64,000 nucleotides of DNA, taken from NCBI GenBank assembly GCA_040756655.1, contig JBFLYN010000006.1:19865-83864 (forward strand), written 5' to 3'. This document shows, piece by piece, positions 5,671 through 28,199 of this stretch. Position 1 is the first letter of the stretch. Each line of letters begins with the position of its first letter. A model generated the notes under the pieces. The model worked only from the letters and a program-made list of their open reading frames with translations, was not told the DNA's origin and did not search any database. This DNA is from Bacillota bacterium (GTDB lineage Bacteria > Bacillota > Sulfobacillia > UBA8153). The translations under genes and the position numbers were made by a program.

Positions 5671-6861
5671 TCACTGCTTGGCAAGCCTCGCAGTCTCCCG
5701 GGCAATCAGTCCCTCCTCGTCGGTGGGGACCACCCACACTCGCACCTGCGAGGTCGCAGCACTGATCTCCCTCTCCCCGGTTTCCAATTCGTTCCTGTCG
5801 GCATCCAGTATTACCCCGGCATAGTGCAGCCCACCGGCGACGGCCCGTCGCAACCGGGAGGAGTTTTCGCCGATGCCCGCGGTAAAAACCAGGCAATCCA
5901 GGCCTCCTAAGACGGCGGTGTATGCACCGATATACTTGACCAGACGATAAGTGGTGACGGCCCAGGCCCGCCGGCACCCCGGGTGGCCGCGGTCTATGCC
6001 TTGCTCGATGTCGCGCATGTCCGGAGAGAGCGCGCTAAGACCTAGGAGGCCGGACTCGCGGTTGAGCGCCCGGTCTAGGTCGGCCGGGGAAAGCCCAAGA
6101 CCGGTCTGAGCATAGAGTACCAAGGACGGGTCCACGTCCCCGCTCCGGGTGCCCATGACCAGTCCCTCCAAGGGGGTAAAGCCCATGCTGGTGTCCACGC
6201 ACTTGCCGTCAAGGACCGCGGAGATGCTGGCGCCGTTTCCCAGGTGGCACACGATGGTGCGGCGGGTGGCCGCATGACCCAGGAGTTTGCGGATGCGGCC
6301 GGAAACATACTGGTGGGAGATACCGTGAAAGCCGTAGCGCCTGATCTGGTGCTCCTGGTACCAGGCGTACGGCAGGGCGTACAGGTAGGCTTGCTCAGGC
6401 AGGGAAGTGTGAAAGGCCGTGTCAAACACGGCCACCTGGGGCCGGCCCGGCAGCAGTTCTCGGGCAGCCAGGATGCCGGCCAAGTTGGCAGGATTATGTA
6501 ACGGCGCCAAGGCCGCGTACCTCTGGATGGCGGAGATCACCTCACCGGTGACCAGGGTGGGCTGGCTGAACTCCTCACCGCCGTGGACCACCCGGTGGCC
6601 CACCGCCCGCACTTGGTCCAGGTGCTCCAGTGCCGGTTTCTCTCCTCGCACGCAGAGTTCCAGCCCCAGTCCGACGGCGTCCCGGTGCCCGGACACTTCC
6701 GGCGCTTCGCGGTCCACCTCCCACCCGCCTGCTCCATGGCGCACCCGGGGCCTGGAGGTGTTCAGTTTCTCCACCATCCCCCGGGCCAAAAGCCCGCCGT
6801 CTTCCTGGTACAGCCGGTATTTCACCGACGAACTGCCGCAGTTGAGCACCAGTATGGCCAC
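5671..6861 (-). CDS. ackA: Acetate kinase
   Basis: ILVLNCGSSSVKY, GHRVVHGG, APLHNP, RRYGFHGISH, HLGNGAS, DTSMGFTPLEGLVMGTRSGD, FTAGIGEN, PTDEE. Confidence 0.97.
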   Translation of the reverse strand: MAILVLNCGSSSVKYRLYQEDGGLLARGMVEKLNTSRPRVRHGAGGWEVDREAPEVSGHRDAVGLGLELCVRGEKPALEHLDQVRAVGHRVVHGGEEFSQPTLVTGEVISAIQRYAALAPLHNPANLAGILAARELLPGRPQVAVFDTAFHTSLPEQAYLYALPYAWYQEHQIRRYGFHGISHQYVSGRIRKLLGHAATRRTIVCHLGNGASISAVLDGKCVDTSMGFTPLEGLVMGTRSGDVDPSLVLYAQTGLGLSPADLDRALNRESGLLGLSALSPDMRDIEQGIDRGHPGCRRAWAVTTYRLVKYIGAYTAVLGGLDCLVFTAGIGENSSRLRRAVAGGLHYAGVILDADRNELETGEREISAATSQVRVWVVPTDEEGLIARETARLAKQ

Positions 6862-6878
6862 ACGCTTCCCTCCGGTCT

Positions 6879-7166
6879 CTAGCCGCCCTCCATGGGCGGG
6901 ACGAAGGTCACGGTGTCGCCGGGGCTCAACCGGGCATCCTCGCCGCCCATAGTCAAGGCATTCTTCCCGTTGATCAACAAGACGCGCGAGACGTATTCCC
7001 GGCGCGCCAGGTCCTCTAGCACCTTATCTCGAAACTCCGGTCCCAGCGCCTCCCCTATCTCCTGCAGGAGCCGGCGCACGGTGGCGGGTTCGCCCAGGCG
7101 AAGTTCCAGTTCCTCGCGCCGGGCCCACTCCCGGAACACTCCCACAAACCGCACGGTTACCCGGAT
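6879..7166 (-). CDS. MoaD/ThiS-family sulfur carrier
   Basis: Ubiquitin-like size ending PPMEGG; start is GTG 7154 or possibly ATC 7166. Confidence 0.85.
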   Translation of the reverse strand: MRVTVRFVGVFREWARREELELRLGEPATVRRLLQEIGEALGPEFRDKVLEDLARREYVSRVLLINGKNALTMGGEDARLSPGDTVTFVPPMEGG

Positions 7167-7178
7167 GCCCGCTCCCCC

Positions 7179-7973: not shown

Positions 7974-7977
7974 CGAC

Positions 7978-9363
7978 TTAACCTCCGCTTCCCCGGGCCG
8001 GTGGCAGGGGGATGCCCAGCCCGCCCAGCTCAGTTTCCAGCTGCTCGTAGAGGGATACATGCTCATCACGAGGGACCAGTGCCTGCACATCGTAGAGTTC
8101 CTCGAAAGGCAATCCTGCAGGTGCTATCCCCACTGCCATGCGGTCGGAAAACCGCGACAACAGCTCCCGGGCCAGCCCATCAGCCTGTCCGGGCGGAAGT
8201 TCCCGGGCACCCCTGGCCACCCGGGCAAACAACCGGGCCATGAGCGGGCTAACCGCGTTACGGTGGGGTGATTCGGCCGGGCGCGGGCCCGCCACGTGCA
8301 CTCCGGCAGTGGCGCTGGCCAGGAGCGAGGCTGTGAACTCGTATGCATACTGGGGGGTCCCGGGACCGGCCCCAGTGGTATGGCTGGTGACCAAAAGCAG
8401 GCGCGAGTGGTTCCGCACGGCCCGGGCTACCAGGCTGGCACACCATATGGACTGGGGATTGGCCTGTTGCCGCAGGCGGGCGTGCTGGGGGCCAAAGTGG
8501 GCCACCCGGCACCCCAGGCAGGCCGACGCAATGGCAGAGGCCACAGCGATGATGGCCGCCGCGGCAGGATCGCTGCTGGGGCCCGGCCCGGCTATCAGCG
8601 GGGTGAAGGCCAAAAACACGGGCGTGCCAAAGTGGCGGTAGTGGCTGATGCGGGCCAGCTGGTGGTCTTCCAACACCAGGTCCTGGGTGAAGGCAACCGC
8701 CCGCCCGTCACTGGCCCGGAGTCCCCAGCCGCCGTGGCTGGCGGCGACCTCGCCCAGCGCCATGAACACGTGCCCCACTATGGGCATGCCCGGCCGGCCC
8801 GCCCTTGCCACGGCCTCCCGGGCCTGGCGACCGTAGAAGGCGGCCGCCTCCACCGCCAGTGCTGATTCGGGACGGAACGGCTGGCCGTGGAATTCGGCCA
8901 GTGACCCCGGGATGTGCAAGACGTCGATGGCTCTCTCCCGGGCGAAACACTCGTTGAGGGGTAGAAACCAGCGGTCGTCGGTGATGGCGTTGAAGGGCCC
9001 GCTGAAGACCAACGGTATGCCGTCAGGACTCATGCTGACGGCATCGGGTGGTTCACCCAGCACCAATTCGGAACCGGCAGCATCCAGCGCATCTTCAATA
9101 TCCTCCGCCGTGAAGGCGATGACCCTGCGGCTTGAGGAAACAAATACCCCGGTGCGCTCCAGGAGTTCCCGGCCGGCCGACCACGCCCGGTGGGCCAGCT
9201 GGGCGTCACACTCCATGAGCACGGCCGGGTCGTAACGCAGCTGGTACTTTCGCTGCAATTCGGCCACGTTCCGGCCCAGGGCGGACACGGTAAAGTCACC
9301 ATTGGTCATGAGCCGGCCGGTTTCAGCGCGCCGGGCAATGTCAACCGACTTAAGAACAGGCAA
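7978..9363 (-). CDS. Monomethylamine:corrinoid methyltransferase (MtmB) homologue without pyrrolysine
   Basis: Collinear with methanogen MtmB as recalled (RAETG, ELQRKY, AGRELL..GVF, AGRPGMPIVG, GPQH, AGPGT, APAGLPFEELYDV); no in-frame TAG. Confidence 0.85.
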   Translation of the reverse strand: MPVLKSVDIARRAETGRLMTNGDFTVSALGRNVAELQRKYQLRYDPAVLMECDAQLAHRAWSAGRELLERTGVFVSSSRRVIAFTAEDIEDALDAAGSELVLGEPPDAVSMSPDGIPLVFSGPFNAITDDRWFLPLNECFARERAIDVLHIPGSLAEFHGQPFRPESALAVEAAAFYGRQAREAVARAGRPGMPIVGHVFMALGEVAASHGGWGLRASDGRAVAFTQDLVLEDHQLARISHYRHFGTPVFLAFTPLIAGPGPSSDPAAAAIIAVASAIASACLGCRVAHFGPQHARLRQQANPQSIWCASLVARAVRNHSRLLLVTSHTTGAGPGTPQYAYEFTASLLASATAGVHVAGPRPAESPHRNAVSPLMARLFARVARGARELPPGQADGLARELLSRFSDRMAVGIAPAGLPFEELYDVQALVPRDEHVSLYEQLETELGGLGIPLPPARGSGG

Positions 9364-9639
9364 GGCTGCTACTCCTTCCAGTCACAGAGGCAGTTTCCAG
9401 CAATTATTGTAACCTATCCTCGGCGTCTGCACCAATAGGTTGGCGGATTTTTTCGTAACTGAGGCAGGAATTCCACCCGCTGATGTCCAATGTCTAAAAC
9501 TAGTTTCCGATAGACGGAAAAGCACCTGGGAGGTCTGGCGGGTAGGTACTTCTAGAGCGAGGTGGTATTGTCCTGCTAGTTCAAGGACTCCGCCGGTGGA
9601 GGTCCGTGCCAGGAGAAGTCCGGAAGAAAGCGGCACCTG

Positions 9640-9668
9640 TTGAAAACTACTTGCATGATGTGCAAAAT
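9640..9668 (+). promoter_or_regulatory. Putative sigma-A promoter overlapped by a 15-bp palindrome (candidate IclR operator)
   Basis: TTGAAA-N17-CAAAAT, with TTGCATGATGTGCAA (9651-9665) lying between and over the boxes. Confidence 0.45.
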
Positions 9669-9760
9669 ACTTGGGCCGCCAGTTACAGCACACCTGGGTG
9701 GAAGGGAGTGAGGATGGTCCCGTTGTTATGTTTCCCTCAAGGATGAAAGGAGGATGTACC

Positions 9761-10753
9761 GTGCCCAACTTGAAAGGCGCAGACTTGCTGTCCCTGCGTG
9801 ACCTTACCCTGGAAGAGCTTTACCTGCTTTTGGAGACAGCCGGAGACCTCAAGCGCAAGTGGAAACGCGGCGAAAGGCAGCGTATCCTCGAAGACAAGAC
9901 CCTGGCCATGGTCTTCCAGATCCCCTCCACCCGCACCAGCATCTCCTTTGAAACTGCCATGACCCAGCTGGGTGGTCATGCCATTTACCTGGGCGGGGAC
10001 CGCATCTGGTCTGGGAAAGCCAAGGAAGAAAGCTGGGGAGACACCGTGGGGACCATCGACCGCTACGCCGATGCCCTGGTGGCCCGGGTCATGGCCCAGG
10101 CCGACCTGAAACTCGCCGCCGACATCGCCCGCATCCCGGTGATCAACGGGTCCACCGACGAGGAGCACCCCTGCCAGGCCCTGGCCGACACCATGACCGC
10201 CCTGGAGAAAGTCCGCGACCTCAGGGGAAAGAAGTACGTGCTCACCTGGGCCTGGCGGCACTCGAACCCGCCCATCGGCCTGGTCAACTCCAGCCTGTAC
10301 GCCATGGCCAAGCTGGGGGTCCAGTTCGTGGTGGCCTGCCCGGAAGGGTATGAGCCCGAAGCCGACGTGCTGGGCAAGGCCCGGGCCGACGCCCGGCCCT
10401 ACGGCACCGAGATCGAAATCGTCCACGACATGAAGAAGGCCGTCAAGGACGCCGACTTTGTGAATATCTACTGTTGGGTCTCCCCGGCCGTGTTCCGCGA
10501 AGGTCTCCATACTAATTTCGCCGCCCCGGCCCCTCACAACGCCGAACCCGACAAGTACCGGCCGTACTGGTATGTCACCGACGACATCATCGACTTGGCC
10601 AAGCCCAACGCTTACGTCATGCACTGCATGCCCGCGGCCCGCGGCGAGGAAGTGGCCGACTCGGTCCTGGATGGCCCCAGGTCCATCATCCTGGACGAGG
10701 CGGAAAACCGCCTGCACATCCAGAAAGCCATCCTGGCCTTGTTGATGGCCTAG
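9761..10753 (+). CDS. Carbamoyltransferase, AOTCase/YgeW-like (not a canonical OTCase)
   Basis: STRT, HPCQ, HCMP and EAENR motifs; KYVLTWAWRHSNPP resembles AOTCase; no DxxxSMG motif; GTG 9761 after GGAGG. Confidence 0.88.
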   Translation: MPNLKGADLLSLRDLTLEELYLLLETAGDLKRKWKRGERQRILEDKTLAMVFQIPSTRTSISFETAMTQLGGHAIYLGGDRIWSGKAKEESWGDTVGTIDRYADALVARVMAQADLKLAADIARIPVINGSTDEEHPCQALADTMTALEKVRDLRGKKYVLTWAWRHSNPPIGLVNSSLYAMAKLGVQFVVACPEGYEPEADVLGKARADARPYGTEIEIVHDMKKAVKDADFVNIYCWVSPAVFREGLHTNFAAPAPHNAEPDKYRPYWYVTDDIIDLAKPNAYVMHCMPAARGEEVADSVLDGPRSIILDEAENRLHIQKAILALLMA

Positions 10754-10818
10754 TTCCCAAAAAACGGGGGGGCCTTGCCGGGTCCCCCCCATTCCCACAG
10801 CTGAGGGGAGGATGTGCC

Positions 10819-12159
10819 GTGCTCGATCTCCTGATCAAGGGCGGCCTGGTCGCCACCTTCGATAGCCAGTGGCGGACCATCCCGGACGGCGCCGTGGCCA
10901 TCCGGGGTTCCAGCATCGTGGACATCGGCCCCGCCGGGGACTTGGCATCCCGGTACCAGGCCAAACGAGTACTGGACGCCACCGGCAAGTTCATCATGCC
11001 GGGCCTGGTTTGTGCCCACGCGCACATGCCCACGGTGCTGGGCCACAACATGCCCGTGGATTTTAGTCAGTTCCACGACTTCATGGACCTTTTGACCAAG
11101 TGGTGGTGGCCGCAGATCGAGGACCAGACCACCAACGAGGACATCTACTGGGCTACCCTGTATTCCAGCATCAAGATGCTGAAGGCTGGCACCACCACGG
11201 TGGCCGACATGGTGGAGGCTCCCTATGCTCTCCCGGGCTGCTTGGACTGGAGCGCCCGGGCCGTAGATGAATCGGGCATCCGGGCCCTCATCGCCTACGA
11301 GGTCACCGACAGGATCGACGAGGAAAACGGCCACCTGGGCGTCCAGGAAAACCTGAGGTTTGTCAAGGAGTGGAACCAAAAGCCCGGCCGGGTCCGGGGC
11401 GCCTTTGCCCTGCACACGGTGGATACCTGCTCAGAGGCGCGGCTGCGGGAGGTAAGGAAGCTGGCTTCCGACCACGGCGCCCACATCTTTATCCATGTGG
11501 CCGAGATTCCGCCCCCCATCACCGAGGCCAGGTGGGGGAAACGCGCTCCTTACGTCATGAGGGACGTGGGACTCCTGGCCCCCGATGTGCTGGCCGTCCA
11601 CTGCATCCACCTGACCCCGGAAGAGATCGACCTCATGGCCGCGGCAAATGTCAAGGTCGCCCACACGCCCATGAGCAACATGCTGGGCGGCAACGGTGTG
11701 GCCCCCATACCCGACATGCTGGACAAGGGGATGTCGGTAGGTCTCGGTCACGACTGCTTTTTCACCCTGGACACCTTCGATTACCTGAGGACCATGTACC
11801 TTGTGCACAAGGTCCACCGGCAAAACCCCGGCGTCCTGCCGCCGCCCCAGGCCCTGGCCATGGTCAGTACCATGGGCGCCCGCGCCCTGGGCATGGACCG
11901 GGACATCGGTTCCCTGGAAACAGGCAAGAAAGCCGACGTGATCATCGTCGACCCGCGGGGCCCGGCGCCCCTCACCCCCCAGACCTTCATGGGCTACGCC
12001 ATCATGGACGTAAACGGCGCCGATGTCCAGACGGTGGTAGTAGACGGCCGGGTGGTGGTGGAGGGCCGCCGCGTGCTCACGGTGGACGAAGGAGAGGTGC
12101 TCCGGCAATGCGTGTCCCGGGCTGAGGCCCTGTGGCGGCGCGCCGGGGCCATCAGCTGA
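10819..12159 (+). CDS. Metal-dependent amidohydrolase (AtzA/SsnA/MTA-SAH deaminase group)
   Basis: PGLVCAHAH, GTTT, HVAE, HTPMSN, GLGHD, IGSLETGKKAD. Confidence 0.92.
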   Translation: MLDLLIKGGLVATFDSQWRTIPDGAVAIRGSSIVDIGPAGDLASRYQAKRVLDATGKFIMPGLVCAHAHMPTVLGHNMPVDFSQFHDFMDLLTKWWWPQIEDQTTNEDIYWATLYSSIKMLKAGTTTVADMVEAPYALPGCLDWSARAVDESGIRALIAYEVTDRIDEENGHLGVQENLRFVKEWNQKPGRVRGAFALHTVDTCSEARLREVRKLASDHGAHIFIHVAEIPPPITEARWGKRAPYVMRDVGLLAPDVLAVHCIHLTPEEIDLMAAANVKVAHTPMSNMLGGNGVAPIPDMLDKGMSVGLGHDCFFTLDTFDYLRTMYLVHKVHRQNPGVLPPPQALAMVSTMGARALGMDRDIGSLETGKKADVIIVDPRGPAPLTPQTFMGYAIMDVNGADVQTVVVDGRVVVEGRRVLTVDEGEVLRQCVSRAEALWRRAGAIS

Positions 12160-12168
12160 CAGGGAGGT

Positions 12169-14253
12169 TTGACTGTGAGCCATTACCGGGTAGGCATCGA
12201 CATCGGCGGCACTTTCACCGATGCCGTGGTCATCGACGATGCGGGTCGCATCAGGATCTTCAAGGATCTGTCGACCCCGGCCGATCCGTCCTTGGGGCTC
12301 CTCAACTGCCTGCGCAAGGCGGCCGCCGCCCACGGGCTGGAGTTTGAGGATTTCCTCAGGGCAGTGGAACTCCTGGTCCACGGGACCACCGTGGCTACCA
12401 ACACCATGATCCAGTACAAGGGTGCCAAGACTGCCCTTATCACCACCCGGGGCTTCCGGGACTCCCTGGAGATGTTCCGGGCCCACAAGCACAACCTGTG
12501 GGACCTCTCCGAACAGCGCCCGCCCATGATCGTCCCCAGGTATCTACGCTACGGCGTAACCGAGCGCATCGACGCCACCGGGACAGTGGTCACCCCTCTC
12601 GATGCCGGGGAGGTCCGCGAGGCCGTGGCGGACATGCGCGGCCACGGGGTGGAGTCAGTGGCCGTGTGCACCCTGTTTTCGTACCTCAACGATGTACATG
12701 AACTGGAGATCAAGAAGATCATCAACGAAGAGTGGCCCGGGGTGCACGTCTCCATTTCCTCGGAGATCCTAAGACAGATCCGGGAGTTCGAGCGCACCTC
12801 CACTACGGTAGTAAACGCCTACGTCTCGCCGCGGCTCAGCACCTACTTGCGCAACCTGCAAAAGGCTCTCAAAGAGCGGGGTCTCCGGCGCGACTTCCTG
12901 GTCACCCAGTCCAACGGCGGTGTGATGTCGGCGGAGTTTGCCGCGGAGCACGGGGTAACCACGCTGCTGTCCGGGCCGTCGGCCGGGGCCGTGGGCGGCA
13001 TGTTCTTTTCGGAGATCCTCGGGGAGCCCAACCTGATCATCACCGACATGGGCGGGACCAGCTTCGACGTTACCCTTATCAAGGACGGCCAGTACACCCT
13101 CACCACCGACGGCTGGGTGAGCGGGTACCGGGTAGCGGTCCCCAGCATTGACATTCACACGGTGGGCGCAGGCGGCGGCAGCATCGCCTACATCGATGAA
13201 GGCGGGATGCTGAAAGTCGGCCCACTGTCCGCTGGCGCCGACCCGGGCCCGGCCTCTTACGGGCGGGGCGGCAAGGAACCCACCGTCACCGACGCCAACG
13301 TAGCGCTGGGTTACCTTAACCCCGGCTATTTCCTGGGTGGGGAGATGAGCCTGGATGCACAGGCCGCGACCAGGGTCATCCAGGAGAAAGTGGCCGCACC
13401 GCTGGGCCTCTCGGTGACCGAGGCAGCCTACGGCATTTTCAAGCTGGTCAACGCCAACATGGCCGATGCCATCCGCGTGGTGTCCATCGAGCGCGGCCAC
13501 GACCCGCGCGAGTGTGCACTCATTGCCGCCGGCGGCGCCGGTCCCATCCACGCCGTGAAGCTGGCCGAAGACGTGGGCGTGCCCCTGGTCATCGTGCCGG
13601 GAGCCGCTTCAGTCTTTTGCGCCCTGGGCATGCTAGAGTCCGACCTCAAGCACGACTACGTCCGGACCTTCTATAGCTCCCTCGGCGCCCTGGATTTTGA
13701 CGCCATCAACGGCGTGTTCTCGACCATGGAAGAAGAAGGCCGCCGCACTCTGGCCGCTGAGGGCACTTTGGCGGAAAACATGATCGTCACCCGCAGCCTG
13801 GACATGAGATACGTGGGCCAGCATCACGAAGTCCACGTGGACATCGGCGACACGGAAGTGAGCCCGGTGACCCTGCCCGAACTGGCCGAAGCCTTCCACG
13901 CCGCCCACGAGCGGCTGTACACCTACAGCGAGCCCGAGAGTGACATCGAGATCATCAACATCCGGGTCACCGCCGTGGGGAAAGTGGCCAAGACACCGCT
14001 ATCCCAAGCCGAAGAAGTGGGTCCCGACAGCTCGGGTGCCAAGAAGGGCCAGAGGACCGTCTACTTCGAAGAGCTGGGGGGCATGGCCCCAGTGGATACC
14101 TACGACGGGCACCGGCTGTTGGCCGGCAACGTGGTGGAAGGACCGGCCGTCATCGAGCTGGTCACCACGTCAGTGGTGCTGTTCCCGGGTAACCGGGCCA
14201 AGGTCGACACCCTCGGCAACCTGCTGGTGGAGGTGAAATCAGGTGTCCGCTAA
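12169..14253 (+). CDS. ATP-dependent hydantoinase/oxoprolinase subunit A
   Basis: GIDIGGTFTD, HGTTVATN, EFERTSTT, SGPSAG, DMGGTSFD, GAGGGS, GPLSAGADPGP, TVTDAN. Confidence 0.95.
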   Translation: MTVSHYRVGIDIGGTFTDAVVIDDAGRIRIFKDLSTPADPSLGLLNCLRKAAAAHGLEFEDFLRAVELLVHGTTVATNTMIQYKGAKTALITTRGFRDSLEMFRAHKHNLWDLSEQRPPMIVPRYLRYGVTERIDATGTVVTPLDAGEVREAVADMRGHGVESVAVCTLFSYLNDVHELEIKKIINEEWPGVHVSISSEILRQIREFERTSTTVVNAYVSPRLSTYLRNLQKALKERGLRRDFLVTQSNGGVMSAEFAAEHGVTTLLSGPSAGAVGGMFFSEILGEPNLIITDMGGTSFDVTLIKDGQYTLTTDGWVSGYRVAVPSIDIHTVGAGGGSIAYIDEGGMLKVGPLSAGADPGPASYGRGGKEPTVTDANVALGYLNPGYFLGGEMSLDAQAATRVIQEKVAAPLGLSVTEAAYGIFKLVNANMADAIRVVSIERGHDPRECALIAAGGAGPIHAVKLAEDVGVPLVIVPGAASVFCALGMLESDLKHDYVRTFYSSLGALDFDAINGVFSTMEEEGRRTLAAEGTLAENMIVTRSLDMRYVGQHHEVHVDIGDTEVSPVTLPELAEAFHAAHERLYTYSEPESDIEIINIRVTAVGKVAKTPLSQAEEVGPDSSGAKKGQRTVYFEELGGMAPVDTYDGHRLLAGNVVEGPAVIELVTTSVVLFPGNRAKVDTLGNLLVEVKSGVR

Positions 14254-19525: not shown

Positions 19526-19822
19526 ATGGATACCGGGCTCATCACTGTGAGCGTAAGGTACTATAATGTCTTTCTAAAGGCCACCGGGAAAAGTCAGGAG
19601 ACGGTGGAGCTGGCCGCAGGATCCCGGGTACGGGACTTGACCCGGACGCTGGCTGGTCGCTACGGCGGCGCCGTGGCCCAGCACCTGGCTGAGGCCGACG
19701 GTAAGCTCCCTCACTACCTGCGGGTGTTCAGAAACGGGCAACCGCTGGCCTTCGACCCGGCCGACGTGGTCCTGCACGACGGTGATGAGCTGGTCATTCT
19801 CATGGCCGCCAGTGGAGGCTAA
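19526..19822 (+). CDS. MoaD/ThiS-family sulfur carrier
   Basis: 98 aa ending LHDGDELVILMAASGG, directly after AOR. Confidence 0.88.
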   Translation: MDTGLITVSVRYYNVFLKATGKSQETVELAAGSRVRDLTRTLAGRYGGAVAQHLAEADGKLPHYLRVFRNGQPLAFDPADVVLHDGDELVILMAASGG

Positions 19823-19823
19823 G

Positions 19824-21065: not shown

Positions 21066-22233
21066 CACCAGCGTCACCATCGGCGGCCTGAGGTTTTCCA
21101 ACCCGGTGTTCGTAGCCGCCGGGTGTCACACCCGTGACGGCGCAACCATGGCCAGCGTGGCCCGCAAGGGTAGACCGGGGGCATTGATCACCAAGACCAT
21201 CGTAAGCCAGCCATCTCCTGATGTGCTTCCCTGCTTTGTGCCTGTGAAATCCGGCTTTATCAACTGCGTGGTAGGCAGTTCACTCCCGGCCCGGCAGTGG
21301 TTCGACCAAGAGATCGCCGCGGCCAAGGCAGGCGGGGCCACGGTCATAGCCAACCTGGCCGGCTTTTACCCGGCCCAGGCGGCAGAACTGGCCGCCCAGG
21401 CTGTGGCGGCCGGGGCCGACGCCGTCGAGCTCCCCACCGTCTGTTCTCACCTCAGGGAAATCCTGGAGGCCCTCTACCCGGGCTTGGTCGTCGAACTGCC
21501 CGGCATCTACGATACCGGGCCTTTCGTCGAAACGCTCAGGGCAGTGAAAGCCGCCGTGGATGTCCCGGTGATCGCCAAGCTCAGCGCGGTGTTTTTGAAC
21601 AACACTGTCCAGTGGGCCCAGGCGGCAGCCGAGGCTGGCGCCGATGCCGTTGCCTGTGCCGACGCCCTTGGTCCGGCACTGGCCATCGACATCGAGACGG
21701 GCGAACCCCTCCTGGGCGGCCCGCGGGGAGTGGGCGGCCTCACTGGTGATGCCCTCAAGCCCATTGCCATGCGCATGGTGCTGGAGGTAGCACAGACCGT
21801 GGCATTGCCCGTCATCGGGGTGGGCGGCGTCAACTCCGCCGAGGACGCCATCGAGTATTTCATGGCCGGGGCCTGCGCCGTGGGCGTGTGCACGGCCGGG
21901 CACCTACGGGGCATTGAAGCCTACGACAAAATCATCACCGGCATTGAGCGGTGGCTGGACCAGCGCGGGTACGGTTCCATCAACGATGTGCGGGGGCTGA
22001 CCATCAGGCGCATCAATGCCCGCAAAGAGCAGGGTCGCCAGTGCATCACTACCCCTCGCTTTCCGGAACTGGACGCTTCGCTCTGCAACGCCTGTGGCAT
22101 CTGCGTGCGCTCCTGCGTGTTTCAAGCCCTAGTCGTAGAAGACGTGGCCGTGGTGGACCGGGCCCGGTGCTATGGCTGCGGCCTGTGCGCCCGGGTCTGC
22201 CCGCGAAAGGCCTTCTCACTGGCCTACTACTAG
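21058..22233 (+). CDS. Dihydroorotate/dihydropyrimidine dehydrogenase (PreA-like) with C-terminal 2x[4Fe-4S]
   Basis: ITKT, PVIAKLS, GGLTGDALKPIAMR, IGVGGV..AEDAIEYFMAGA, CNACGIC..C and CYGCGLC..CP. Confidence 0.88.
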   Translation: MADTSVTIGGLRFSNPVFVAAGCHTRDGATMASVARKGRPGALITKTIVSQPSPDVLPCFVPVKSGFINCVVGSSLPARQWFDQEIAAAKAGGATVIANLAGFYPAQAAELAAQAVAAGADAVELPTVCSHLREILEALYPGLVVELPGIYDTGPFVETLRAVKAAVDVPVIAKLSAVFLNNTVQWAQAAAEAGADAVACADALGPALAIDIETGEPLLGGPRGVGGLTGDALKPIAMRMVLEVAQTVALPVIGVGGVNSAEDAIEYFMAGACAVGVCTAGHLRGIEAYDKIITGIERWLDQRGYGSINDVRGLTIRRINARKEQGRQCITTPRFPELDASLCNACGICVRSCVFQALVVEDVAVVDRARCYGCGLCARVCPRKAFSLAYY

Positions 22234-22251
22234 ACAAAGGAGGCTTCTTTC

Positions 22252-23250
22252 GTGCCCAAGGCTGACCGGAGGCTCATCGTTATCGCTCTGGGCGGCAATG
22301 CCATTCTCAGACCAGGACAGCGCGGCACCGTGGCGGAACAGGCCCAGAACGTGGCCACCACCGCCGCGCAGGTCGTAGAGATCCTGAAGGCCGGCTACGA
22401 CGTGGTCATCACCCACGGCAACGGGCCGCAGGTGGGCAACATTCTCATCCAGCAAGAGGCCGGCTCCGAGCTGGTGCCGCCCATGACCCTGGACATCTGC
22501 GGCGCCCAGAGCCAGGGCCAGATCGGCTACATGATCCAGCAGTCCCTGGGCGGTCTCTTGGCCCAGGCCGGCATGTCCCGGCCGGTAGTCACCGTGCTCA
22601 CCCAGGTACAGGTGAACCCGGACGACCCGGCTTTCTCCCGCCCCACCAAGCCCGTGGGGCCCTTCTACACCGAAGAACGCGCACGCCGGCGCATGGCCCA
22701 GACCGGGGAGACCTGGGTGGAAGACGCCGGGCGCGGGTGGCGCAAGGTAGTGGCGTCCCCGGACCCGGTAGCCATCGTGGAAGCCGCGACCATCCGGGAG
22801 CTTTCCCAGGGGGGCACTGTAGTCATCGCCTCGGGCGGCGGGGGGATCCCGGTGGTAGAAACAGCTCCCGGGATCTTTCGAGGGGTAGAGGCCGTCATCG
22901 ATAAGGATCTGGCCGGGCAGCGCCTGGCCACCGGCCTGGGAGCCTCGGCCTTCGTCATCCTCACCGACGTGTCCCGGGTGTGCCTGGAGTATAAGACCGC
23001 GCGGCAGCGGGAACTGGCGTCCATGAGCCTGGAAGAGGCCGGCGCCTACATGGCGCAGGGTCACTTCAAACCCGGGAGCATGGGGCCCAAGGTCAAGGCC
23101 GCCATGAGGTTCGTGGAAGCCGGGGGTCAGGCAGCCATCATCACGTCGTTGGACGCGGCGGTGGACGCCATCACCGGCGACGCCGGCACCTGGATTTCCC
23201 GCAATGGAAGGAGGGAATGCAACTTACGTGAGTCTCAAAGCGGTCTTTGA
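22252..23250 (+). CDS. arcC: Carbamate kinase
   Basis: IALGGNA, THGNGPQVG, PTKPVGPFY, GWRKVVASP, GGGGIPV, GVEAVIDKD, GSMGPKV. Confidence 0.96.
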   Translation: MPKADRRLIVIALGGNAILRPGQRGTVAEQAQNVATTAAQVVEILKAGYDVVITHGNGPQVGNILIQQEAGSELVPPMTLDICGAQSQGQIGYMIQQSLGGLLAQAGMSRPVVTVLTQVQVNPDDPAFSRPTKPVGPFYTEERARRRMAQTGETWVEDAGRGWRKVVASPDPVAIVEAATIRELSQGGTVVIASGGGGIPVVETAPGIFRGVEAVIDKDLAGQRLATGLGASAFVILTDVSRVCLEYKTARQRELASMSLEEAGAYMAQGHFKPGSMGPKVKAAMRFVEAGGQAAIITSLDAAVDAITGDAGTWISRNGRRECNLRESQSGL

Positions 23251-24583
23251 AGCCCGTAGCGTGGCAGTGGTAGGGGCATCCGCTACGCCCGGGAAAATCG
23301 GGTACACCATAGTAGAAAACCTCCTCGGCGCCGGATTCCAGGGGCGCATTCACCCGGTCAACCCTCGCGGCGGGGAGATCCTGGGCCTGACGGCCGTCCG
23401 CGATCCCTCGGAGATCCCCGGAAAACTGGACCTGGCGGTGATGTGTATACCGGCGCCGCTGGTACCGGCGGCCCTGGAGCAGGTGGCCCGGGCCGGGGCC
23501 CAGGGCGCCGTGGTCATCTCGGGAGGCTTCGGCGAGGTGGGCAACGCTGAGCTGGAGGAAGTGACGGTCAGCACCGCGCGCCGCCTGGGTATCAGGTTGA
23601 TCGGCCCTAACTGCCAGGGCGTCAACTACACCCCCCGGGGGCTGTGCGCCACCTGGCCGTTGCTCAAGGTGCCCGGGCCCATCGCCATCATCTCCCAGAG
23701 CGGCACCGTGGGGGCGGCGCTGGGCGACTGGGCAGAGCAGGAGGGATTGGGCATTTCGGCCTTTGTGGGGTTGGGAAACAAGGCCGATGTTAGCGAACTT
23801 GAACTCATGGAGTATTTTGCCGGCGACCCGCACACCCGTTGTATTGCCCTGTACCTGGAGCGGGTCAGGGACGGTCATGAGTTCAGGCGGGTGGCCAAGG
23901 AAGTGCGGGCCGAAAAGCCCGTGGCCATCCTGCGGGGCGGGCGCACGGCCCGGGGCCGGGTGGCCGCCGAGTCCCACACCCGTTCCGTGGCGGGAAGCTA
24001 CGCAGTCTTCAAGGCGGTAGCGGGCGAGTTGGGCTTGTACTTGGCCACCACAGTGACCGGGCTTTATGACTTGGCCAAATTCGCTGCCCTCTCCCGGCCG
24101 CCCGCGGGCAGACGCATTTTCTGTATCACCAGTTCGGGCGGCAGCGGCATCCTGGCGGTGGACGCCGCCGAGGAACTCGGGCTGGTCCAGGCAGAGCTGT
24201 TGCCTGACCTGGCAGAAGAGCTGCGGGCGACCCTGCCCGAACGGTGCGTCATCTCTAACCCCCTCGACCTCACGGGAGATGCCGACGCTGCCCGCTACCT
24301 CACCGCCGGCCGACTGGTCGCCGCTCACCAGGCCGCCGACGTATACTTGATGATTTTTGGTGATCCAGTGCCTGGGGCCAGCCAGGCCGCCCGGGCCCTG
24401 CAGGAGCTGGTAGCTCCGGCAGGCGGGACGGTAGTGGCGTGTTGCCTGGGCGGCGGAGAGGTGGAACGAGACGAGGTGGTCCGGCTGCACCAGGCCGGCA
24501 TCCCCGCGTTTCCGGCGCCGGAGCGGGCGGTGGCCGCCGTCGCCGCGACTTTGGACCGGGCACCCCAAGACGGAGGTGAATGA
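23228..24583 (+). CDS. ADP-forming acyl-CoA synthetase alpha subunit (CoA-binding)
   Basis: SVAVVGAS, PVNP, ISGGFGE, IGPNCQG, SQSG, GLGNKADV, SHT phospho-His, NPLDLTGD; GTG 23228 after GGAGG. Confidence 0.92.
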   Translation: MSLKAVFEARSVAVVGASATPGKIGYTIVENLLGAGFQGRIHPVNPRGGEILGLTAVRDPSEIPGKLDLAVMCIPAPLVPAALEQVARAGAQGAVVISGGFGEVGNAELEEVTVSTARRLGIRLIGPNCQGVNYTPRGLCATWPLLKVPGPIAIISQSGTVGAALGDWAEQEGLGISAFVGLGNKADVSELELMEYFAGDPHTRCIALYLERVRDGHEFRRVAKEVRAEKPVAILRGGRTARGRVAAESHTRSVAGSYAVFKAVAGELGLYLATTVTGLYDLAKFAALSRPPAGRRIFCITSSGGSGILAVDAAEELGLVQAELLPDLAEELRATLPERCVISNPLDLTGDADAARYLTAGRLVAAHQAADVYLMIFGDPVPGASQAARALQELVAPAGGTVVACCLGGGEVERDEVVRLHQAGIPAFPAPERAVAAVAATLDRAPQDGGE

Positions 24584-26535
24584 CCATGCACCAGATTATT
24601 GCAGCCAAGCCGGGCCAGCGCCTGCTCCTCATGGGAAACGAGGCCATTGCCCGGGGCGCCCTGGAGGGCGGTGTGGACCTGGTAGCCGCCTACCCGGGTA
24701 CCCCCTCTTCCGAGATTACCGAGACCTTGCTGGACGTGGCCGAGGACACCGGCATCTATGCGGAATGGAGCACCAACGAAAAAGTCGCCTTCGAAGTGGC
24801 AGCCGGGGCCGCCATTGCGGGAGTGCGGTCGTTGGTGGCCATGAAGAACGCCGGTCTCAACGTGGCCATGGATACGTTCATGACCATCCCTTACGGGGGG
24901 ATCATGGGGGCCATGGTGGTGGTAGTGGCCGACGACCCCGGCGCCCACTACTCCTCAACCGAGCAGGACACCCGGGTGCTGGCCCGCTACGCCGAGATCC
25001 CGTGCTTTGAGCCCCGGGACCAGGACGAGGCCCGGGCCATGACCGCCGCCGCGCTGGAGCTTTCGGCCCAGTTGGAACTACCGGTGTTCGTGCGGTCGGT
25101 GACGCGCATCTCCCACGCCTCGGGCGACGTTACCCTGGGCCACGTACCGGCCCGGTCCCCGGACCCCGGTTTTAACCGCCACTACGGCATGCCTTTCCGC
25201 TGGGGCGTGTACGGTCCCCCGGGAGCCACCTCCAAGCACGCCTGGCTCCACCGGACCTTCCCCCAGCAACTGGCAGCCAGCGAGCAGTCTCCATTCAACG
25301 TGCTGACCCTAAAGGACGGGGCCCGGGTGGGCATCATCGCCGCGGGCCTGGGATCCGCCTACGCCCAGGACGCCTTGACGGACCTGGCCATCGGGGAAAA
25401 CTGCCACTTCTTAAAGCTGGGTCTGGTCAACCCCCTGCCGGAACAGCAGCTGAAAGCCATCATCCGGGCCAGCCAGATGCTCTTGGTGGTAGAAGAGGGC
25501 GACCCGGTGGTAGAACAGGAAGTGTGGGCGCTGGCCAAGGAGCACAACCCGGACGCCGTCATCTGGGGCAAGTGGAAGCAGCAAGCCTTTCTCCCCTACG
25601 GCGAGCTCAACGGGGACCTGGTCAGAAACGCCGTGGCCCGGGTCTTTGCCCAGGACCTCCCGGCTTGTGCCGCCCGGTCGGAGATGAAAGAAAAGCTCCG
25701 GAAACTAGTAGTCCCCCGCTCGTCTACGCTGTGCGCCGGTTGCCCGCACCTGGGCTCCTTCTGGGCCCTGAAAATGGCCCTGCGCCGCTTTCCGGGCACC
25801 CATATCGTCAACGGCGACATCGGCTGCTATGAGCAGGGCGGGTACGGCATCTTCGGCCAGGCCGTCAAGGACGGGCCGGAACGCAAGCAGAAACAACCCA
25901 TCCGGTCGCCCTACGAGATCCTGGATACCTGCCACGTGATGGGGAGCGGCATCGGCCTGGCCCAGGGGCAGGCCCAGGCCGGCTACAGGGAAGGCAAGGT
26001 GCTAGCGGTGGCGGGCGACTCCACGTTCTTCCATGCCTGCCTACCCGCCCTGGCCAGTGCGGCCTGGAACAACGCCGATATCACGTTCTTGATCATGGAC
26101 AACTCGTGGACGGCCATGACCGGTCACCAGCCCAGCCCCACCACCGGCAACGGCCAGCCCGTGTTTGACATCCCCGGCCTTGCCGAGAAGCTAGGGGCCA
26201 AGATATGGCAGGCCCGCGCCTTCGACCTGGAGCAGGCCACGGAGACCATTGCCCAGGCGGTGGCCCACGCTGGGCCCAGCGTGGTGGTGCTCACCGGCGA
26301 ATGCGCCCTGCAGTATATCCGACGGGAACGACCCGGGCCTGGACTTACTCAAGTGGACCCGGCAGCCTGCACCGGCTGCAAGATCTGCCTGGCCGTGGGC
26401 TGCCCGGCCGTGACCTTTGACAACACCACCAAGAAGGCGGGCATCGATGCCGTCCAATGCATAGACTGCGGGCTCTGCGTGGCGGCCTGTCCCCAAGGGG
26501 CCATGAGTGCCGGAGGTGAAGACCATGGCAGTTAA
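24580..26535 (+). CDS. iorA: Indolepyruvate:ferredoxin oxidoreductase alpha subunit
   Basis: LLMGNEAIARG, YPGTPSSE, EWSTNEKVA, DDPG..SS.EQD, LCAGCPH, GDIGCY, GDSTF, AMTGHQ, C-terminal ferredoxin. Confidence 0.95.
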   Translation: MTMHQIIAAKPGQRLLLMGNEAIARGALEGGVDLVAAYPGTPSSEITETLLDVAEDTGIYAEWSTNEKVAFEVAAGAAIAGVRSLVAMKNAGLNVAMDTFMTIPYGGIMGAMVVVVADDPGAHYSSTEQDTRVLARYAEIPCFEPRDQDEARAMTAAALELSAQLELPVFVRSVTRISHASGDVTLGHVPARSPDPGFNRHYGMPFRWGVYGPPGATSKHAWLHRTFPQQLAASEQSPFNVLTLKDGARVGIIAAGLGSAYAQDALTDLAIGENCHFLKLGLVNPLPEQQLKAIIRASQMLLVVEEGDPVVEQEVWALAKEHNPDAVIWGKWKQQAFLPYGELNGDLVRNAVARVFAQDLPACAARSEMKEKLRKLVVPRSSTLCAGCPHLGSFWALKMALRRFPGTHIVNGDIGCYEQGGYGIFGQAVKDGPERKQKQPIRSPYEILDTCHVMGSGIGLAQGQAQAGYREGKVLAVAGDSTFFHACLPALASAAWNNADITFLIMDNSWTAMTGHQPSPTTGNGQPVFDIPGLAEKLGAKIWQARAFDLEQATETIAQAVAHAGPSVVVLTGECALQYIRRERPGPGLTQVDPAACTGCKICLAVGCPAVTFDNTTKKAGIDAVQCIDCGLCVAACPQGAMSAGGEDHGS

Positions 26536-27136
26536 CATCATCATCACCGGTGTAGGCGGGCAAGGCAGCGTCCTGGCCTCGCGTATTGTGGCCGGTGCTT
26601 TGCTGCAGCACGCGGGCTCCGATCCTCAATACCGGGTACGGGTGGGAGAGACCTTCGGGGCCGCCCAGCGCGGGGGTTCAGTAGCCTCCCACGTGCGTGC
26701 AGGATCCGTCCTGGGACCCCTGGTGGGAGAGGACCAGGCCGATCTCATCGTCGCCCTGGAGCCCCTGGAAGGCCTCAGGATCGCCGTTCGGTACCTCAAG
26801 CCCGGCGGCACGGTGGTGCTGAATACCCGGGCGGTCCCTCCCACCGATGTCAAGGCCGGCTATGCCCAGTACCCGGCGCTGGAGGCCATCCTGGAAGCCC
26901 TTGACCGCCTCGGCGGGAAGGTCATCGCCCTGGACGCCACCGCCCTGGCCGAAGAGGCAGGCAGTATCAAGGCCATGAACGTGGTGCTGGTGGGAGCAGC
27001 AGCCCGCACCGGCCTGACGGGCGTACACCGCGAGACCTTCCTGCAAGCGGTGGAAGACCGGGTGCCCGCGCGCTTCAAGGCCCTGAACCTGAAGGCCTTC
27101 GACCTAGGATGGCAATGCGCCGGGGAGGCGACGTAA
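26525..27136 (+). CDS. iorB: Indolepyruvate:ferredoxin oxidoreductase beta subunit
   Basis: GVGGQG, GAAQRGGSVASHVR, ALEPLEG, NVVLVG, NLKAFDLG. Confidence 0.93.
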   Translation: MAVNIIITGVGGQGSVLASRIVAGALLQHAGSDPQYRVRVGETFGAAQRGGSVASHVRAGSVLGPLVGEDQADLIVALEPLEGLRIAVRYLKPGGTVVLNTRAVPPTDVKAGYAQYPALEAILEALDRLGGKVIALDATALAEEAGSIKAMNVVLVGAAARTGLTGVHRETFLQAVEDRVPARFKALNLKAFDLGWQCAGEAT

Positions 27137-27137
27137 C

Positions 27138-27821
27138 ATGGGCCAGCCAGGTGCTGACCTGATCCAGATGGCCCGGGCGGAAGGACGCCACCTGCTGGAG
27201 CCCGAGGCGGCCCTCCTGTGCCAGGCCTTTGGCCTGCCGTTGCCGGCCTGGCGGTGGGTGCATGATCAAGCCCAAGCTCTGGAGGCAGCTGCGGACCTAA
27301 AGAGCCCGCTGGTGCTCAAGCTGGTGAGCCGGGACATCCTCCACAAGAGCGATGTGGGCGGTGTGAAACTGGGGGTCACCAAAGGTGAGATGACGGCTGC
27401 GGCTTTCGCTGAGCTGGCCAGTATCGCTCAGGCCCGGAAGGCCCGCTTCGACGGGGTGCTGGTGTGCCAACAAGCACCGGCCGGGCTGGAGCTGGTGGCG
27501 GGAATGGTGCAGGACCCCGAGTTCGGCCCGGCCCTTATGTTCGGCCTGGGCGGCACGGCTGTGGAGCTCTTCGGGGATGTCGCCTTCGGTTCGGTGCCGG
27601 TGACTCCCGCCCGTGCCCGGCACATGATCGCCAGCACCCGGGCGGGGAAGCTGCTTTCCGGATACCGCGGCGCCTGCTTAGACCTGGAGGCAATCACCGC
27701 CGTGCTCACCGGCCTTTCCAGGCTGGTGGAAGCCCACCCGGAGATCCAGGAAATCGACCTCAACCCGGTGCGGGCCTACCAGAGCGGGGCCCTCATTCTC
27801 GACATCAGGATCCTCCTCTAG
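27138..27821 (+). CDS. ADP-forming acyl-CoA synthetase beta subunit (ATP-grasp)
   Basis: PLVLKLVSRDILHKSDVGGV, DPEFGPALMFGLGG, EIDLNPV. Confidence 0.92.
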   Translation: MGQPGADLIQMARAEGRHLLEPEAALLCQAFGLPLPAWRWVHDQAQALEAAADLKSPLVLKLVSRDILHKSDVGGVKLGVTKGEMTAAAFAELASIAQARKARFDGVLVCQQAPAGLELVAGMVQDPEFGPALMFGLGGTAVELFGDVAFGSVPVTPARARHMIASTRAGKLLSGYRGACLDLEAITAVLTGLSRLVEAHPEIQEIDLNPVRAYQSGALILDIRILL

Positions 27822-27829
27822 ATCCCAGA

Positions 27830-28197: not shown

Positions 28198-28199
28198 CC

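Follow-up and report, generated by a model that had tools for sequence, protein, structure and literature searches.

A conserved gene cluster joining an opine dehydrogenase, a hydantoinase and a carbamoyltransferase, with a putative role in anaerobic cyclic-ureide breakdown

Introduction

What substrate would call for an opine dehydrogenase, an ATP-dependent hydantoinase, a carbamoyltransferase with a carbamate kinase, and oxidoreductases for aldehydes and 2-oxo acids, all within one operon? This question is raised by a 64,000-nucleotide stretch of DNA from a Bacillota bacterium (assembly GCA_040756655.1, contig JBFLYN010000006.1, positions 19,865 to 83,864), referred to here as the window, for which an earlier note had proposed an undescribed anaerobic pathway for an N-substituted ureide or heterocycle, with creatinine among the candidate substrates. 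The cluster is real and strongly conserved, with an anaerobic ureide/purine theme and an opine dehydrogenase in a catabolic setting. We give somewhat better than even odds (about 0.55) that the operon encodes a self-contained anaerobic cyclic-ureide route, parallel to but distinct from the 2,8-dioxopurine pathway, whose substrate would most likely be a purine-like or hydantoin-type N-heterocycle.

Of known systems, the reductive uric-acid (2,8-dioxopurine) pathway of 2025 comes closest; judged by its gene families, the window cluster appears parallel to it and not identical. In the accessible text of its description, XdhD makes 2,8-dioxopurine, YgfK (or UacX) and SsnA dearomatise it and open the pyrimidine ring to give ureidomethylhydantoin, HyuA then opens the hydantoin, YgeW or UacY and then YgeY strip the ureido groups, YgeX gives pyruvate, and YqeA makes ATP (10.1101/2025.05.19.654654). 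The Escherichia coli set is given there as xdhD-ygfK-ssnA-hyuA-ygeW-ygeY-ygeX-yqeA, with a C. difficile variant that has UacX and UacY, and phosphorolysis of the ureido group is described as thermodynamically unfavourable (10.1101/2025.05.19.654654).

As the earlier note had supposed, full-text literature searches, whose coverage stopped short of the supplements of PMC12507026 (the SsnA network), turned up no description of the gene combination, nor of HyuAB paired with a phosphorolytic carbamoyltransferase and an opine dehydrogenase. Oxoprolinase-type hydantoinase and opine dehydrogenase have no occurrences in the available parts of the texts of 10.1101/2025.04.24.650524 and PMC12507026. A “dehydrogenase X1” family was earlier linked to hyuA, ygeW, ygeY, ssnA and xdh in a source whose accessible text does not describe the combination seen in the window (PMC4016543).

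Gene content of the operon

The window has a G+C content of ~64%. Fifteen open reading frames (ORFs) on the plus strand span 9671/9761-27821, overlapping or abutting one another where the earlier note had placed them, with spacing between neighbours that ranges from a 47-base overlap to a 65-base gap. Gene families, here and below, are Pfam and NCBIfam profile matches judged against curated cut-offs.

9761-10753 (longest ORF from 9671), plus strand: carbamoyltransferase, Pfam OTCace_N and OTCace
10819-12159, plus strand: SsnA-like amidohydrolase of the ATZ/TRZ/SsnA group, Amidohydro_1
12169-14253, plus strand: HyuA, with Hydant_A_N, Hydantoinase_A and Hydant_A_C
14243-16021, plus strand: HyuB, Hydantoinase_B at 561 bits
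16018-17148, plus strand: opine dehydrogenase, PF02317 at 99 bits (cut-off 30)
17145-17636, plus strand: protein with four [4Fe-4S] clusters (poly-ferredoxin), Fer4 families
17633-19525, plus strand: AOR, AFOR_N and AFOR_C
19526-19822, plus strand: MoaD-like protein, ThiS
19782-21065, plus strand: Pyr_redox_2 flavoprotein of 427 amino acids, FAD/NAD subunit
21058-22233, plus strand: PreA/DHOD-like protein, DHO_dh plus two [4Fe-4S] clusters (Fer4)
22252-23250, plus strand: carbamate kinase, TIGR00746
23204-24583, plus strand: alpha subunit of an ADP-forming acyl-CoA synthetase (ACS), AcCoA-syn-alpha at 413 bits (cut-off 567)
24580-26535, plus strand: IorA-like protein, IOR_alpha at 559.5 bits (cut-off 650.9)
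26507-27136, plus strand: IorB-like protein, IOR_beta at 196.3 bits (cut-off 205.8)
27138-27821, plus strand: ACS beta subunit, by profile match

A consensus scan of 9000-28900 was uninformative: chance alone would give 2.7 promoter-like and 12.0 terminator-like sites, and the scan returned 2 and 11, respectively.

Conservation across genomes

Homologues of the opine dehydrogenase, taken from one genome per species, defined 78 loci extending 10 kilobases (kb) to either side. By record titles they come from 12 named phylum-level groups and unclassified organisms: Spirochaetota (28 loci), Bacillota (18), Chloroflexota (9), Bipolaricaulota (4), Hadarchaeota (4), Cloacimonadota (3), Thermotogae (3), Bathyarchaeia (2), Atribacteria (1), Caldisericota (1), Coprothermobacterota (1), Omnitrophota (1) and unclassified (3). 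Nineteen window proteins served as tblastn queries against these loci, counting matches at E≤1e-10 that covered 50% or more of the query; genes in the flanks are undercounted where contigs are short. The most frequent partners are hyuB (64/78 loci), the carbamoyltransferase (63/78) and hyuA (54/78), followed by the PreA-like gene (34/78), AOR (30/78), the SsnA-like gene (29/78), ACS alpha (19/78), the IorA-like gene (16/78), the MtmB-like gene of a divergent unit described below (13/78) and carbamate kinase (8/78).

Of 51 adequately flanked loci (5 kb or more upstream and 2 kb or more downstream of the opine dehydrogenase), 43 hold hyuA, hyuB, the opine dehydrogenase and the carbamoyltransferase together. 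The arrangement is also tight, as hyuB ends less than 200 base pairs (bp) from the opine dehydrogenase in 62 of 64 loci, and the carbamoyltransferase starts less than 300 bp after it in 53 of 62. The synteny search proposed in the earlier note therefore finds the combination conserved in many phyla, and a chance mosaic is contradicted because the gene order holds across loci. Whole-genome searches of ten genomes whose locus lacks an SsnA-like gene gave a match in all ten (eight at 45-50% and two at 38-39% identity); five of these would lie a few kb beyond the end of the locus, if the numbered contig is the locus contig, and five are on other contigs. A carbamoyltransferase orthologue was found in 5/5 genomes searched whole. 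Three conserved “unknown” ORF clusters (696, 411 and 378 amino acids) were dropped as antisense artefacts over hyuB and the opine dehydrogenase gene; counts of ORF clusters fall below the tblastn counts because greedy ORF calling yields such artefacts in high-GC loci.

The oxidoreductases follow a different pattern. Of the 40 loci flanked by 9 kb or more on each side, 18 have AOR and 15 have IOR (indolepyruvate:ferredoxin oxidoreductase type); 31 have either and only 2 have both. This rare co-occurrence fits two alternative solutions for one step.

Carbamoyltransferase and carbamate kinase

By profile and motif, the carbamoyltransferase is best described as a putative catabolic enzyme of the ornithine carbamoyltransferase (OTC) clade with a new specificity signature, which would make it at least one new subfamily. 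It scores below the OTC cut-offs (NF001986, 284.3 bits against 306; TIGR00658, 272.7 against 280.85), and its nearest solved structure is Pyrococcus OTC (254 bits). The label “YgeW-like” in the earlier note has to be withdrawn, as the YgeW model TIGR03316 reaches 80 bits against a cut-off of 500 and identity to E. coli YgeW is 26.7%, compared to 61-65% for true YgeW homologues in other genomes.

The ornithine-binding loop of OTC reads DxxxSMG. In the window enzyme the SMG loop is replaced and the remaining motifs read STRTS, HPCQ and HCMP, which sets it outside OTC, for which the accessible part of the source lists S[LT]RT(R), HPxQ and HCLP (PMC4016543, Table 1). The same changes are found in most of 49 cluster-linked carbamoyltransferase sequences, while a canonical OTC paralogue on contig C50 of the same genome, beside another carbamate kinase, retains STRTR, TDVWAS and HCLP. 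Orthologues at 47-49% identity have open frames of 337-342 amino acids, and their alignment begins at the first residue of the protein read from 9761; the true start probably lies between about 9728 and 9761. The carbamate kinase passes its equivalog cut-off (TIGR00746, 407.3 bits against 358.25).

Opine dehydrogenase

The opine dehydrogenase accompanies HyuB and the carbamoyltransferase more constantly than any other gene, and its PF02317 domain together with a conserved residue triad marks it as a genuine member of the family, as far as sequence can tell. It matches CENDH (PDB 1bg6) at E=1e-36 (130 bits), with His203, Arg302 and Asp307 aligned to CENDH His202, Arg292 and Asp297, and all three are invariant in 29 homologues. 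These His, Arg and Asp residues are reportedly the catalytic residues in the CENDH structure. Among 8000 candidates scored, 486 relatives were found at E≤0.001, many of them 50-60% identical and from unrelated anaerobes.

Ring-opening and ring-reducing enzymes

HyuA and HyuB are predicted to be the two subunits of an ATP-dependent hydantoinase/lactamase. Their genes overlap by 11 bases and they match PF05378, PF01968, PF19278 and PF02538 far above cut-offs, as is expected of a HyuA-HyuB pair, a family active on 5-substituted hydantoins. Against the caprolactamase models HyuA scores 751 bits (CapA) and HyuB 412 bits (CapB), both with a cut-off of 1000, and the best structural matches of HyuA are PDB 6yra (534 bits) and the N-methylhydantoinase 7hk5 (491 bits).

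The SsnA-like amidohydrolase reaches 298 bits against the SsnA model TIGR03314 (IPR017700; cut-off 455.5) and is 27.5% identical to E. coli SsnA. In a tree restricted to cluster members of 400-520 amino acids, in which long branches were flagged (GuaD and the paralogue on contig C39), 23 cluster-linked amidohydrolases including that of the window stand apart from 4 true SsnA proteins with support of 97/95. On this basis the window enzyme would belong to a sister clade of SsnA, outside the SsnA family. The PreA-like protein is similarly distant from named enzymes (PreA, 164 bits against 335; DHOD, 191 against 269), and combines an FMN domain with two C-terminal [4Fe-4S] clusters, without an FAD/NAD domain. 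This is the architecture described, in the accessible text, for C. difficile UacX and clostridial PydA (10.1101/2025.05.19.654654).

Oxidation modules and the divergent unit

Positions 17145-21065 form an AorABC-type block with an Fe-S subunit, AOR, a MoaD-like protein and an FAD/NAD subunit. The best match of the ferredoxin is PadI and that of the flavoprotein is PadH, and the 427-amino-acid flavoprotein is probably the AorC-like subunit of an AorABC-type tungsten enzyme. A PreT/PreA pair formed by this flavoprotein and the DHO_dh gene was considered and rejected, given the PadH match and the position in the AorABC block; neither gene was named in the gene list of the earlier note. Further downstream, both IOR-like subunits fall under the equivalog cut-offs for indolepyruvate:ferredoxin oxidoreductase, so that the pair may be described, by type, as a putative 2-oxoacid:ferredoxin oxidoreductase of the IOR kind. 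The two ACS genes bracket iorA-iorB, and the order acsA-iorA-iorB-acsB recurs in other loci.

Four further genes run in the opposite direction, and each belongs to the family proposed for it earlier.

7978-9363, minus strand: MtmB-like protein, PF05369 at 178 bits
7179-8090, minus strand: IclR-family regulator, HTH_IclR and IclR_C
6879-7154, minus strand: second MoaD-like protein, ThiS family
5671-6861, minus strand: AckA, acetate/propionate kinase, TIGR00016 at 453 bits (cut-off 293)

The inclusion of this unit in the cluster holds in part, as the MtmB-like gene recurs at other loci and tblastn found ackA and iclR at 0/78. The tie of AckA and the second MoaD-like protein to the cluster is local only. 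The MtmB-like protein, present as a single copy in the genome, has Val at the pyrrolysine position of MtmB (1l2q), without an in-frame stop. Thus neither the pyrrolysine with its in-frame TAG nor the cognate corrinoid protein that define MtmB is found: of the 10 B12-binding domains in the genome none adjoins the gene, and corrinoid proteins of the type found beside MtmB-like genes elsewhere gave no tblastn match in this genome. The sole characterised non-pyrrolysine MtmB, going by the accessible text of its source, is the tetramethylammonium/choline methyltransferase MtqB (PMC13044021). The IclR protein is likely a local regulator of the cluster. Its best NCBIfam match is BhcR (219 bits against a cut-off of 350), which presumably responds to glyoxylate.

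Cluster neighbours and the host genome

The genes around the other 78 loci extend the theme. Neighbours include the large, FAD and 2Fe-2S subunits of an Xdh-like enzyme (30, 28 and 15 loci, respectively), GntR regulators (14), Grd components (10-14), corrinoid proteins (12), MttB-family methyltransferases (10), class-III aminotransferases (11, at AOR-type loci), PnrA-like binding proteins (7), OCD-like proteins whose best match is the SbnB family (6 loci; 245 bits against a cut-off of 327) and NCS2 permeases (2). Cluster-adjoining transporters vary by lineage and comprise NCS2, PnrA-like, Opp-like, ECF and amino-acid permease types. A conserved insert of a corrinoid protein, an MtmB-like protein, an MttB-family protein and an SbnB/OCD-like protein lies between the carbamoyltransferase and AOR genes (L031, L039, L046, other Bipolaricaulota, Atribacteria and Thermotogae). 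In the four Hadarchaeota loci (L030, L032, L050 and L052) HyuAB is absent and a cyclic amidohydrolase is found instead, and the opine dehydrogenase is surrounded by the carbamoyltransferase, a corrinoid protein with an MtmB-like protein, GcvT and an FrhB-like protein.

The earlier note had reported Xdh, DpaL (YgeX) and YgeY to be absent. In other genomes Xdh belongs to the system, judging by its frequency among the neighbours. In the host, YgeX has no tblastn match at E≤1e-8 and Xdh is indeed missing from the window, but Xdh genes are present on contig C9, adjoining a paralogue of the PreA-like gene, and a YgeY homologue (35% identical) is on C13. Close homologues of YgeW, SsnA or YgfK were not found in the genome. 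A paralogous cluster on contig C39 (L081, G000:C39, 5462-14398) encodes a ferredoxin, AOR, SsnA-like and PreA-like proteins, a 186-amino-acid protein of no assigned family, a dihydropyrimidinase above its family cut-off and a second AOR. The first of the two C39 AORs is 58% identical to that of the window, so that AOR accompanies both SsnA-like/PreA-like pairs of the genome.

The contig also encodes, 3-10 kb upstream of the window (L080, G000:C6, 9968-17143), a full selenoprotein Grd system, in the order GrdB-like (selenocysteine 351), GrdE-like, TrxR, Trx, GrdA (with an in-frame TGA) and a fused GrdC/D. The in-frame TGA of the GrdB-like gene is at codon 351, in the context U-x-x-C-x-x-C. This system is orthologous to the cluster-linked Grd of Spirochaetes (54-57% identity), and its B component is far more divergent than that of the canonical Grd on contig C24. 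Its assignment as a sarcosine reductase was rejected, as the canonical C24 Grd also has GrdG as its top alpha-subunit match (562 bits), no GrdE model giving a match. Against the sarcosine-reductase models, cluster-linked Grd scores 382 bits (cut-off 800) and 269 bits (cut-off 780). All that these profiles show is that the cluster-linked Grd is divergent.

True SsnA, above the family cut-off, is found elsewhere in 3 of 5 core-bearing genomes. Two of these three sites, L085 (G001:C40, 5240-16998) and L086 (G051:C23, 6260-16734), carry homologues of canonical uric-acid genes (YgeW at 61-65% identity, YgeY, true SsnA, YgfK and Xdh), and the third shows only Xdh-like genes. A YgeX homologue occurs in only 1/5 core-bearing genomes. 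In our view this co-existence makes a substrate other than 2,8-dioxopurine likelier than simple redundancy. Among relatives of the host, the opine dehydrogenase was found at E≤1e-60 in 0/40 genomes (2 of the same family and 38 of the same class), and the cluster may have been acquired horizontally. DNA of the window occurs in groundwater, biofilm and sediment metagenomes, and among the runs listed for positions 9761-19700 none is of RNA.

A proposed route

The earlier note had outlined ring reduction and hydrolysis, ring opening, decarbamoylation with ATP gain, C-N cleavage, and oxoacid oxidation with further ATP gain, and this logic fits the families found. Gene families, order and conservation are observed; the chemistry below is a proposal. 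By analogy with UacX/YgfK and SsnA, the PreA/UacX-like Fe-S flavoenzyme and the SsnA-sister amidohydrolase would reduce and hydrolyse an aromatic oxo-pyrimidine-type ring, with the amidohydrolase hydrolysing or deaminating the reduced ring, and the oxidation pattern may be set by an Xdh-type hydroxylase, whose genes lie on another contig here and beside the cluster in other genomes. ATP-dependent HyuAB would then open the hydantoin or lactam ring that is left, giving an N-carbamoyl amino acid. The OTC-clade carbamoyltransferase is proposed to phosphorolyse the ureido group or groups, with carbamate kinase turning carbamoyl phosphate into ATP. The opine dehydrogenase would oxidise the freed (N-substituted) amino acid at the C-alpha-N bond to a 2-oxo acid or glyoxylate, a step that may also pull the unfavourable phosphorolysis forward. 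The oxo acid could be converted to an acid and ATP by the IOR-type enzyme and ADP-forming ACS, or pass through an aldehyde to AorABC. Finally, the upstream divergent Grd and AckA may carry a glycine-type product to acetate and ATP. A speculative concrete version would run from diureidopropionate to albizziin, 3-ureidopyruvate, N-carbamoylglycine and glycine, with Grd or GcvT next; the link to glycine is suggested by Grd in 10-14 loci and upstream in this genome, and by GcvT in the Hadarchaeal loci.

Several points weigh against such a self-contained cyclic-ureide route. To our knowledge, no described purine-breakdown intermediate is an obvious opine (secondary amine), and for this reason the role of the most conserved gene, the opine dehydrogenase, is the weakest assignment. 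The SsnA-like and PreA-like proteins fall below all curated cut-offs and their chemistry may be unlike that of SsnA and UacX, and every catalytic assignment, like the substrate, is deduced from sequence. ATP-dependent ring opening cancels one ATP gained from carbamate kinase. Xdh and transporter genes are absent from the annotated part of the window (up to 34000), and the varied transporters elsewhere point to no single substrate. The corrinoid, MtmB-like and MttB genes of 12-13 loci are left without explanation. The 0/40 result among relatives also makes the cluster sporadic in its lineage.

Alternative explanations

The closest alternative is the uric-acid/2,8-dioxopurine pathway itself, with HyuAB in the place of HyuA, the OTC-clade enzyme in that of YgeW/YgeY, and opine dehydrogenase with IOR/AOR in that of YgeX, all as non-orthologous replacements. 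It would start at ureidomethylhydantoin and reach a C2/C3 acid by way of 2,3-diureidopropionate and albizziin or diaminopropionate. The functional parallel with the published steps is one-to-one, the host lacks true YgeW, SsnA, YgfK and YgeX homologues and may thus have no purine route besides the cluster, the OCD-like neighbour of some loci best matches the 2,3-diaminopropionate-linked SbnB family (245 bits, cut-off 327), and albizziin, as a short citrulline homologue, might suit an OTC-derived enzyme. We nevertheless regard it as unlikely, since 3 of 5 core-bearing genomes also hold true SsnA, at two sites with YgeW, YgfK and YgeY, which argues against redundancy, the cluster amidohydrolase forms a separate clade, and YgeX has a homologue in only one of the five. 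An ATP-conserving reductive pyrimidine pathway appears improbable as well. Here the amidohydrolase would deaminate cytosine, the PreA-like enzyme reduce uracil or thymine and HyuAB open the dihydropyrimidine, after which carbamoyltransferase and carbamate kinase would yield beta-alanine and ATP, and an aminotransferase and then AOR would oxidise the semialdehyde. The PydA-type architecture, the class-III aminotransferase of 11 AOR-type loci and the NCS2 permease of 2 loci would fit this scheme, but it gives no role to Xdh, Grd, GcvT or IOR with ACS and no obvious substrate to the opine dehydrogenase; dihydropyrimidines are, moreover, normally opened without ATP, and a bona fide dihydropyrimidinase lies in the separate C39 cluster.

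Creatinine or N-methylhydantoin, the first candidate of the earlier note, now looks like a long shot. In this scheme the amidohydrolase would deaminate creatinine, HyuAB open N-methylhydantoin, and carbamoyltransferase with carbamate kinase convert N-carbamoylsarcosine to sarcosine and ATP; sarcosine would be cleaved by the opine dehydrogenase to glyoxylate and methylamine or reduced by Grd, and the MtmB-like protein would handle the methyl group. It draws on the match of HyuA to a solved N-methylhydantoinase (491 bits), on the BhcR match of the IclR protein, on the MtmB-like and corrinoid proteins of 12-13 loci, and on opine dehydrogenase and Grd both acting, by family, on N-substituted amino acids, while glyoxylate, an aldehyde as well as a 2-oxo acid, would account for the rare co-occurrence of AOR and IOR. 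The scheme leaves over the constant Xdh-like, PreA-like, SsnA-like and NCS2/PnrA-like partners, however, and the amidohydrolase is unlike cytosine/creatinine deaminase models, cluster-linked Grd is far under the sarcosine-reductase cut-offs, and tblastn found no corrinoid protein of the MtmB-adjoining type in this genome. Creatinine is also unlikely in groundwater, biofilm and sediment or in the hot-spring and subsurface lineages of the homologues, and the anaerobes known to degrade creatinine or N-methylhydantoin are reported to have a hydantoinase that needs no ATP and an N-carbamoylsarcosine amidase that acts by hydrolysis. Creatinine is thus weakly supported, and a purine-like or hydantoin ureide is favoured. 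It is a very slim chance that there is no single pathway, and that a ureide module, an aldehyde-detoxifying AOR and an aromatic 2-oxoacid IOR/ACS module are simply adjacent. IOR with ACS and AorABC are generic modules of amino-acid fermentation, ackA and iclR are not conserved with the cluster, and accessory content differs between lineages; set against this are the 15 overlapping or abutting genes, the finding that 31 of 40 fully flanked loci, drawn from many phyla, have AOR or IOR no more than 10 kb from the core, and the second AOR pair that flanks the paralogous SsnA-like/PreA-like cluster on C39.

Flanking features

Other features of the window and its surroundings are listed for completeness.

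3287-4687: chemotaxis receptor, flanking the cluster
27942-28418: ORF of 158 amino acids directly after the operon, without a Pfam match
28537-29448, minus strand: alpha/beta hydrolase, flanking the cluster
29581-30420: ORF of 279 amino acids whose only match, to ATP-grasp, is below threshold
31065-31736, minus strand: reverse-transcriptase fragment of 223 amino acids, partial RVT_1 (profile positions 1-106 of 205)

The RVT_1 fragment could be what is left of a group II intron or a retron. Between the Grd genes and the chemotaxis receptor is an ORF that weakly matches DASS-family anion symporters (82 bits against a cut-off of 199), at 18470-19900 of L080 and continuing into positions 3-647 of the window; neither it nor the receptor was linked to the cluster.

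Implications

How purines and other cyclic ureides are broken down without oxygen became clear only in 2025, for gut bacteria. The cluster suggests a second, parallel solution in many environmental anaerobes, including members of the Spirochaetota, Chloroflexota, Bacillota, Bipolaricaulota, Cloacimonadota and Hadarchaeota, and would open a way to study how microbes of the subsurface draw ATP and nitrogen from the heterocycles of dead cells. The new carbamoyltransferase specificity, the catabolic opine dehydrogenase and the ATP-dependent hydantoinase in a fermentative setting are targets for enzymology. The non-pyrrolysine MtmB homologues, a large group that is still unexplored, are here placed in a genomic setting, as is a divergent Grd system. 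A bolder reading, possible though rather doubtful, is that of a widespread, undescribed energy-conserving pathway for an N-heterocycle other than urate, with an N-methylated or differently oxidised purine, allantoin or hydantoin, and hydantoin-5-propionate as candidates. It would rest on three candidate new activities: an OTC-derived phosphorylase of N-carbamoyl or ureido amino acids, an opine-dehydrogenase-type oxidoreductase that cleaves the C-alpha-N bond, and a divergent Grd-type selenoprotein reductase. If true, a non-pyrrolysine MtmB/corrinoid system would in some lineages link ureide breakdown with methyl transfer.

Comparison with known systems

Each module of the operon has a characterised relative. 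The window block resembles AorABC of Aromatoleum aromaticum, as the accessible literature presents it, in holding the Fe-S, AOR and FAD/NAD subunits and a MoaD-like gene together; unlike it, the block is embedded in a ureide operon, and tungsten is presumed from the family. The opine dehydrogenase shares with CENDH (1bg6) the family and the aligned, invariant His/Arg/Asp triad, but matches it at 130 bits only and stands in a catabolic, anaerobic context. HyuA/HyuB has the two subunits and all the domains of the ATP-dependent hydantoinase/oxoprolinase family (N-methylhydantoinase, CapAB and 5-oxoprolinase), and matches caprolactamase-type and N-methylhydantoinase structures strongly, yet falls below the caprolactamase equivalog cut-offs. 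With the ornithine/putrescine carbamoyltransferase and carbamate kinase of the arginine and agmatine deiminase pathways, the window enzyme has fold and clade in common, and the proposed conversion of a ureido compound and phosphate to carbamoyl phosphate and then ATP is alike. It differs in STRTS for STRTR, in the replaced SMG loop and, in many members, in HCMP for HCLP.

The fullest comparison is with the 2,8-dioxopurine pathway. Its defining set (XdhD, YgfK/UacX, SsnA, cyclic HyuA, YgeW/UacY, YgeY and YgeX) is represented in the window only by the UacX-like architecture, along with carbamate kinase, and across the 78 loci YgeX is found in 0, YgeY in 2 (weak) and cyclic HyuA in 3. Common to pathway and cluster are an Xdh-type enzyme, a flavin/Fe-S ring reductase beside an SsnA-group amidohydrolase, hydantoin ring opening, and a phosphorolytic carbamoyltransferase that with carbamate kinase would lead to ATP. 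The cluster has the SsnA-sister amidohydrolase for SsnA, ATP-dependent HyuAB for the cyclic amidohydrolase and the OTC-clade enzyme for YgeW, and its loci carry the opine dehydrogenase with AOR and/or IOR and ACS where the 2,8-dioxopurine pathway has YgeX and YgeY.

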